This document shows, in pieces, positions 5,532 through 6,320 of a stretch of DNA of 64,000 bases (positions are counted from its first letter, which is position 1; each line of letters begins with the position of its first letter). The DNA is from Escherichia coli (GTDB lineage: Bacteria; Pseudomonadota; Gammaproteobacteria; Enterobacterales; Enterobacteriaceae): the NCBI RefSeq assembly GCF_003018255.1, contig NZ_CP027440.1; one strand, given 5' to 3'. The position numbers and the translations under genes were made by a program. The notes beneath the pieces are model-generated. The model was given only the letters and a program-made list of their open reading frames with translations. It did not search any database and was not told where the DNA came from.

Positions 5532-6320
5532 ATGCTGGTTGCCGCAGGACAGTTTGCTGTTACATCTGTGTGGGAAAAGAACGCTGAGATTTGTGCCTCG
5601 TTGATGGCGCAGGCGGCGGAAAACGAGGTTTCGCTGTTTGTCCTGCCGGAAGCATTACTGGCGCGTGATGATCATGATGCGGATCTTTCGGTTAAATCAG
5701 CACAGCTGCTGGAAGGCGAATTCCTCGACCGTTTACGGCGAGAAAGTAAACGTAACATGATGACGACAATTCTGACGATTCATGTTCCTTCAACACCGGG
5801 GCGCGCGTGGAATATGCTGGTGGCGCTACAGGCAGGAAACATCGTCGCCCGTTATGCCAAACTGCATCTCTATGATGCATTTGCCATTCAGGAATCACGC
5901 CATGTTGATGCTGGTAATGAAATAGCTCCGTTACTGGAGGTGGAAGGGATGAAGGTCGGTCTGATGACCTGTTATGACTTACGCTTTCCAGAGCTGGCGC
6001 TGGCACAGGCATTACAGGGAGCTGAAATCCTGGTACTTCCTGCCGCCTGGGTTCGTGGGCCGCTCAAAGAGCATCACTGGTCAACGTTGCTTGCCGCTCG
6101 TGTGCTGGATACCACCTGTTATATGGTGGCGGCGGGGGAGTGCGGGAACAAAAATATCGGGCAAAGCCGGATTATAGATCCCTTTGGCGTCACCATTGCG
6201 GCAGCGTCAGAAATGCCTGCACTCATTATGGCGGAAGTGACGCCCGAACGTGTGCGTCAGGTACGCGCGCAACTGCCCGTCTTAAACAACCGTCGCTTTG
6301 CGCTGCCGCAATTATTATGA
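5532..6320 (+). CDS. ybeM: C-N hydrolase (nitrilase superfamily) YbeM, intact reading frame
   Basis: Track ORF starts at GTG 5526; ATG 5532 follows SD aggagg (5521-5526) by 5 nt; 262 aa. Confidence 0.8.

Follow-up and report, generated by a model that had tools for sequence, protein, structure and literature searches.

An uninterrupted ybeM allele, predicted to encode deaminated glutathione amidase, represents the prevailing state of a gene that is frameshifted in Escherichia coli K-12

The ybeM gene in the 64,000-nucleotide stretch of Escherichia coli DNA analyzed here (the window) is, with a probability that we place at about 90%, an ordinary uninterrupted E. coli allele and a bacterial ortholog of Nit1, predicted from its sequence to encode deaminated glutathione (dGSH) amidase, a metabolite repair enzyme of the nitrilase superfamily. 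An intact ybeM is the rule in E. coli, and the gene, its function, its pseudogene status in K-12 and this very allele are already present in public annotation. As a gene already known and found here in its usual form, it has little importance beyond bookkeeping and opens no new question. Nonetheless, K-12 is atypical for ybeM, so that work on glutathione damage or metabolite repair in K-12 makes use of a natural ybeM null, and strains like that of the window carry the gene for the YbeM enzyme intact.

Results

The ybeM locus and its neighbors

Direct reading of the sequence and the list of open reading frames (ORFs) both revealed a continuous 789-nt frame running from ATG to TGA, with a single terminal stop and none inside, confirming the claim of the initial annotation that an intact 262-codon ybeM ORF with a strong Shine-Dalgarno sequence (aggagg) is present (Table 1). 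The mechanical ORF list placed the start at a GTG two codons earlier, at 5526, giving a 264-aa product, whereas the ATG is the start chosen by RefSeq for the identical sequence of E. coli JNE23-011.

Table 1. Features of the ybeM locus, in window coordinates
Feature	Position	Strand	Role or relation	Basis
crcB (fluoride exporter)	5056..5439	-	divergent upstream neighbor, fixes synteny	ORF and annotation of identical region; same order in K-12
Shine-Dalgarno-like AGGAGG	5521..5526	+	5 nt before ATG	same in K-12
ybeM CDS, 262 codons plus TGA	5532..6320	+	predicted deaminated glutathione amidase (Nit1-type C-N hydrolase)	
Codon 40, GAA	5649..5651	+	catalytic Glu40 (LPE)	alignment to 1EMS/4H5U; invariant in 106/106 homologs
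Codon 67, CGT	5730..5732	+	middle G at 5731 is the base missing in MG1655	pairwise alignment and base re-insertion
Codon 110, AAA	5859..5861	+	catalytic Lys110 (YAKLHL)	alignment to 1EMS/4H5U; invariant in 106/106 homologs
Codon 147, TGT	5970..5972	+	nucleophilic Cys147 (TCYD)	alignment to 1EMS/4H5U; invariant in 106/106 homologs
Codon 191, GTG	6102..6104	+	Val, lineage-specific, replaces conserved Ala of ARA-L-D motif	protein alignment, 61-mer count
Codon 258, CTG	6303..6305	+	Leu, lineage-specific, replaces mostly conserved Pro	protein alignment
tatE	6449..6652	+	downstream neighbor	ORF and annotation (K-12, JNE23-011)
lipA	6753..7718	-	neighbor beyond tatE	

The chromosome of E. coli JNE23-011 (NZ_AP045067.1) is 99.64% identical to the first 50 kb of the window by BLAST and 100% identical over window positions 5450-6400, a 951-nt reference region for identity and presence. 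In that chromosome the identical sequence is annotated as intact, with the product WP_001561629.1, "deaminated glutathione amidase". The gene order pagP-cspE-crcB-ybeM-tatE-lipA is common to the window, K-12, JNE23-011, O157 and Nissle, and because the gene in the window lies between crcB and tatE as it does in K-12, it occupies the position orthologous to the K-12 ybeM locus. Compared with E. coli YbeM as represented by NF033621 and WP_001561629.1, the protein of the window is identical to the latter, has the same length and the same crcB-ybeM-tatE-lipA context, and shows no difference at the family level.

Searches for expression signals at the locus gave little. No σ70-like site was found on the + strand in the 92-bp spacer between crcB and ybeM, a result that, coming from a simple promoter scan, is weak evidence either way, and the scan for promoters and terminators returned nothing above shuffled expectation. 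A scan of the whole window at the Rfam gathering thresholds matched nothing at either crcB or ybeM, indicating that no fluoride riboswitch is located there. Published data assign an NsrR ChIP signal to the crcB/ybeM interval (window 5440-5531) in both CFT073 and K-12, and report that NO stress lowers ybeM expression in a CFT073 mutant (PMC5320621).

The same Rfam scan matched the cspA-thermoregulator upstream of this locus, at window positions 4602-5050 (+), covering cspE together with its leader (136 bits; gathering score 78). Such a match is expected for a cspA-family paralog such as cspE.

Family membership and catalytic residues

The initial annotation described the product as a complete C-N hydrolase, and profile searches bear this out. 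YbeM residues 3-245 match positions 2-255 of the 256 in the Pfam CN_hydrolase profile (PF00795) with 138.6 bits, against a cut-off of 23.2, and a 262-codon frame with such a score excludes a chance ORF. At the level of specific function, the NCBIfam model NF033621 (de_GSH_amidase) was matched across positions 2-260 of 260 with 447.9 bits (E 1e-134), well over its curated cut-off of 355. Homologs of the same 262-aa length and 71-83% identity are found in E. fergusonii, Citrobacter, Salmonella, Leclercia, Kosakonia, Enterobacter and Cronobacter, most of them named deaminated glutathione amidase.

The best solved relatives are of the Nit1 type, namely C. elegans NitFhit (1EMS, E 5e-30) and yeast Nit2 (4H5U, E 6e-27). 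The LPE, YAKLHL and TCYD motifs of YbeM align with LPE, KLHL and CYD of both structures, identifying Glu40, Lys110 and Cys147 as the catalytic residues; thus the E-K-C triad is complete. All three are invariant in a set of 106 full-length homologs drawn from Escherichia, Citrobacter, Salmonella, Leclercia, Kosakonia, Enterobacter and Cronobacter, in which Glu121 is likewise invariant (106/106) and Glu154 nearly so (101/106). A further structure, 4HGD, has Ser in the column of the nucleophilic Cys (ISYD vs ICYD). Full-length similarity to the solved Nit structures (E 5e-30) suggests that YbeM adopts an alpha-beta-beta-alpha sandwich fold.

Comparison with eukaryotic Nit1 (mammalian Nit1, the Nit domain of NitFhit in 1EMS, and the yeast protein in 4H5U, deposited as "hydrolase NIT2") places YbeM in the same fold family by sequence. 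Besides the triad, the CYDxRFPE and ARAxD/E motifs of 1EMS and 4H5U align with those of YbeM, and the reaction assigned to Nit1 is the one assigned to YbeM (PMC10452834). In contrast to the eukaryotic enzymes, YbeM is a stand-alone protein of 262 aa with no Fhit fusion, and the HMMER alignments show substantial divergence outside the motifs. Within E. coli, YafV, which corresponds to the Nit2 omega-amidase, is also a nitrilase-superfamily amidase with the same triad, but it is a different paralog encoded at a different locus.

That kinship bears on whether YbeM might be a C-N hydrolase of another specificity (a Nit2/YafV-type omega-amidase, a true nitrilase or an N-carbamoylputrescine amidase) rather than a dGSH amidase. 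The fold and triad are indeed common to all such families, and YbeM gives weak matches to their models. Nevertheless, every alternative NCBIfam model fell far below its cut-off, including the YafV-type model (PRK10438, NF007757; 59.5 bits vs 249), the archaeal nitrilase model (62.1 vs 500), the aguB model (61.7 vs 410) and the Yersinia-type dGSH amidase model (79.5 vs 500), while NF033621 was well above its own, so that we regard another specificity as extremely improbable.

The proposed activity of YbeM, conversion of dGSH to 2-oxoglutarate and Cys-Gly, is assigned from family membership and the NCBIfam name together with the literature. In PMC10452834, which cites Peracchi et al. 2017, Nit1 is described as the repair enzyme for dGSH that carries out this reaction, and YbeM has been equated with Nit1/dGSH amidase (PMC8788347). 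The substrate is understood to be the 2-oxo analog of glutathione, in which a keto group takes the place of the amino group, and would arise as a side product of transaminases. Judging from what is known of Nit1 and the nitrilase superfamily, Cys147 would attack the amide carbonyl of dGSH, with Glu40 probably serving as the general base and Lys110 stabilizing the tetrahedral intermediate; Cys-Gly would leave as a thioacyl-enzyme forms, and hydrolysis of the thioester would then give 2-oxoglutarate. The E. coli homolog itself is reportedly an efficient dGSH amidase.

The K-12 frameshift

The K-12 copy (b0626), taken to be a pseudogene in the initial annotation, is 788 bp long in MG1655 and is indeed annotated by RefSeq as a pseudogene, "deaminated glutathione amidase, frameshifted". 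The locus, Shine-Dalgarno sequence and start are the same in K-12 and the window, and DNA identity is about 97.6% across the 951-nt reference region. The pairwise alignment contained one gap only, corresponding to the G of codon 67, so that K-12 ybeM proved neither identical nor intact. In comparison with the O157 allele, K-12 has GGAC-TTTAC where intact alleles have GGACGTTTAC. Putting one base back into K-12 ybeM restored the 789-nt open frame. As it stands, the K-12 frame ends after 75 residues, and Lys110 and Cys147 are therefore never translated. Consistent with this status, MG1655 ybeM has been treated as a pseudogene and serves as an insertion site (PMC7242477).

Distribution of intact and interrupted alleles

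Of the 5426 complete E. coli genomes, 5424 contain the ybeM region. When these were searched with a 61-mer that crosses the K-12 deletion, 860 (about 16%) gave an exact match, and the remaining 4564 matched with at least one difference. All 49 full-length non-exact matches listed are 62 bases long, against 61 in the query, indicating that the base is kept in the genomes of those matches and that about 84% of genomes are without the K-12 lesion. The suggestion that the genome of the window may keep a functional allele thus holds insofar as frame and catalytic residues are preserved, although this is nothing special, since most genomes do not carry the K-12 deletion. O157:H7, Nissle 1917 and strain N64 all carry an intact 789-nt ybeM, and the exact protein of the window is present, as "deaminated glutathione amidase", on 676 contigs in public collections. 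A 954-nt version of the reference region differs in length by three extra bases upstream of the CDS, which is still 789 nt.

Wild isolates of human, porcine and environmental origin are among the carriers of the deletion (in the pig isolate JP538, ybeM is likewise annotated as frameshifted), indicating that the lesion is a natural polymorphism and not a laboratory mutation or artifact. A different interruption was observed in E. coli O166:H15 JNE21-003 (NZ_AP041809.1), where an IS21-family element, ISEc62 (istA, istB), lies within ybeM near its 3' end, at 3385-5351, leaving a 726-nt CDS still annotated as the amidase and a 99-nt remnant. This insertion inactivates ybeM by a route unrelated to the K-12 frameshift.

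Shifted C-termini are seen in many ybeM products from draft and metagenome assemblies (clusters P0045, the commonest, and P0030, P0015, P0020, P0051 and P0057) and seem to reflect homopolymer errors in assembly, not genuine alleles. P0045 (214 aa, 945 member sequences) fits loss of one A from the A5 run at window positions 6150-6154. We considered whether it marks another common frameshift allele and rejected this: at 99% identity or more, the frameshifted sequence was found in 0 of 5394 complete genomes, pointing to a homopolymer error in draft assemblies or, at the most, to a very uncommon allele. Another candidate, P0048 (215 aa), has a different N-terminus and occurs on three contigs only; at one of the two loci shown, tatE is also aberrant and lipA is split, so that P0048 is probably an assembly error as well.

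The allele of the window and selection on ybeM

The nearest allele to that of the window is the Nissle 1917/N64 type, from which it differs by A191V and P258L, the two substitutions that it adds to the common E. coli alleles. Three further residues, E32, D66 and H124, distinguish it from the O157 allele and are common to the Nissle type. Position 191 is Ala in the other nine aligned proteins, including those of O157 and Nissle, and in the repaired K-12 frame, and this Ala, part of the ARA-x-(D/E) motif, is conserved as far as worm NitFhit and yeast Nit2. Among the 106 homologs, column 191 holds A in 95, C in seven, S in three and V in one, and column 258 holds P in 93 and L in one. An exact 61-mer carrying V191 was present in five of 5420 complete genomes.

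Between distinct lineages, with the window or Nissle compared to O157 or repaired K-12, dN/dS was 0.07-0.18 (Nei-Gojobori), in the range expected of a functioning gene that purifying selection has maintained across E. coli lineages. The short branch leading to the window itself carries two non-synonymous and zero or one synonymous changes, too few to judge selection. Here "intact" denotes a preserved frame and preserved catalytic residues and is not proof of an active enzyme.

These observations raise the question of whether the frame could be intact and the enzyme impaired, with selection relaxed in a rare lineage and A191V and P258L representing early decay or a change of specificity. Both differences from the N64/Nissle type are non-synonymous, with zero synonymous changes relative to N64; both fall at conserved positions, V191 being confined to the few complete genomes noted above; and ybeM is clearly dispensable in E. 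coli, since 16% of genomes carry the K-12-type frameshift and one strain has the IS21-family insertion. On the other hand, two substitutions are too few for inferring relaxed selection, the Ala to Val change is conservative, the catalytic residues are all untouched, and the presence of the exact protein on hundreds of contigs argues that the allele persists in a successful clone. We therefore consider impairment unlikely: changes at two conserved positions are the only ground for hesitating to read "intact" as "fully active", but they are too little for a claim that function is reduced, and the reading of ybeM in the window as an ordinary allele is preferred. It is a correspondingly slim prospect that the V191 lineage holds a YbeM variant of altered or reduced activity, at a stage preceding the frameshift by which K-12 completed the loss; if true, ybeM would offer a small natural series of the decay of a repair enzyme within E. 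coli.

Other features of the window

Between lipA and lipB (8742-9383), the window contains a degraded remnant of ybeF, encoding a YbeF-family transcriptional regulator, at positions 7953-8482 (-). Whereas ybeF is intact at 954 bp in K-12, the window lacks about 400 bp of its 3' part, with a junction near 7953-7960, and the remaining sequence is only 95% identical to K-12, with two gaps. The JNE23-011 annotation likewise treats ybeF as a frameshifted, incomplete pseudogene. Thus, K-12 has a broken ybeM and an intact ybeF, and the window shows the reverse.

A 625-aa rhomboid-family intramembrane serine protease is encoded at 27376-29253 (+), between gltI and lnt, according to the JNE23-011 annotation. 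We know of no gene at this position in K-12. The small RNA sroC (Rfam RF00369, 172.6 bits) was identified at 25854-26016 (-) in the gltI-gltJ spacer, its known position. Finally, seven tRNA genes lie at 36418-37121 (-) between ubiF and asnB, in the order Met, Leu, Gln, Gln, Met, Gln, Gln when read on the - strand, and off-diagonal BLAST matches revealed internal direct repeats within this cluster.
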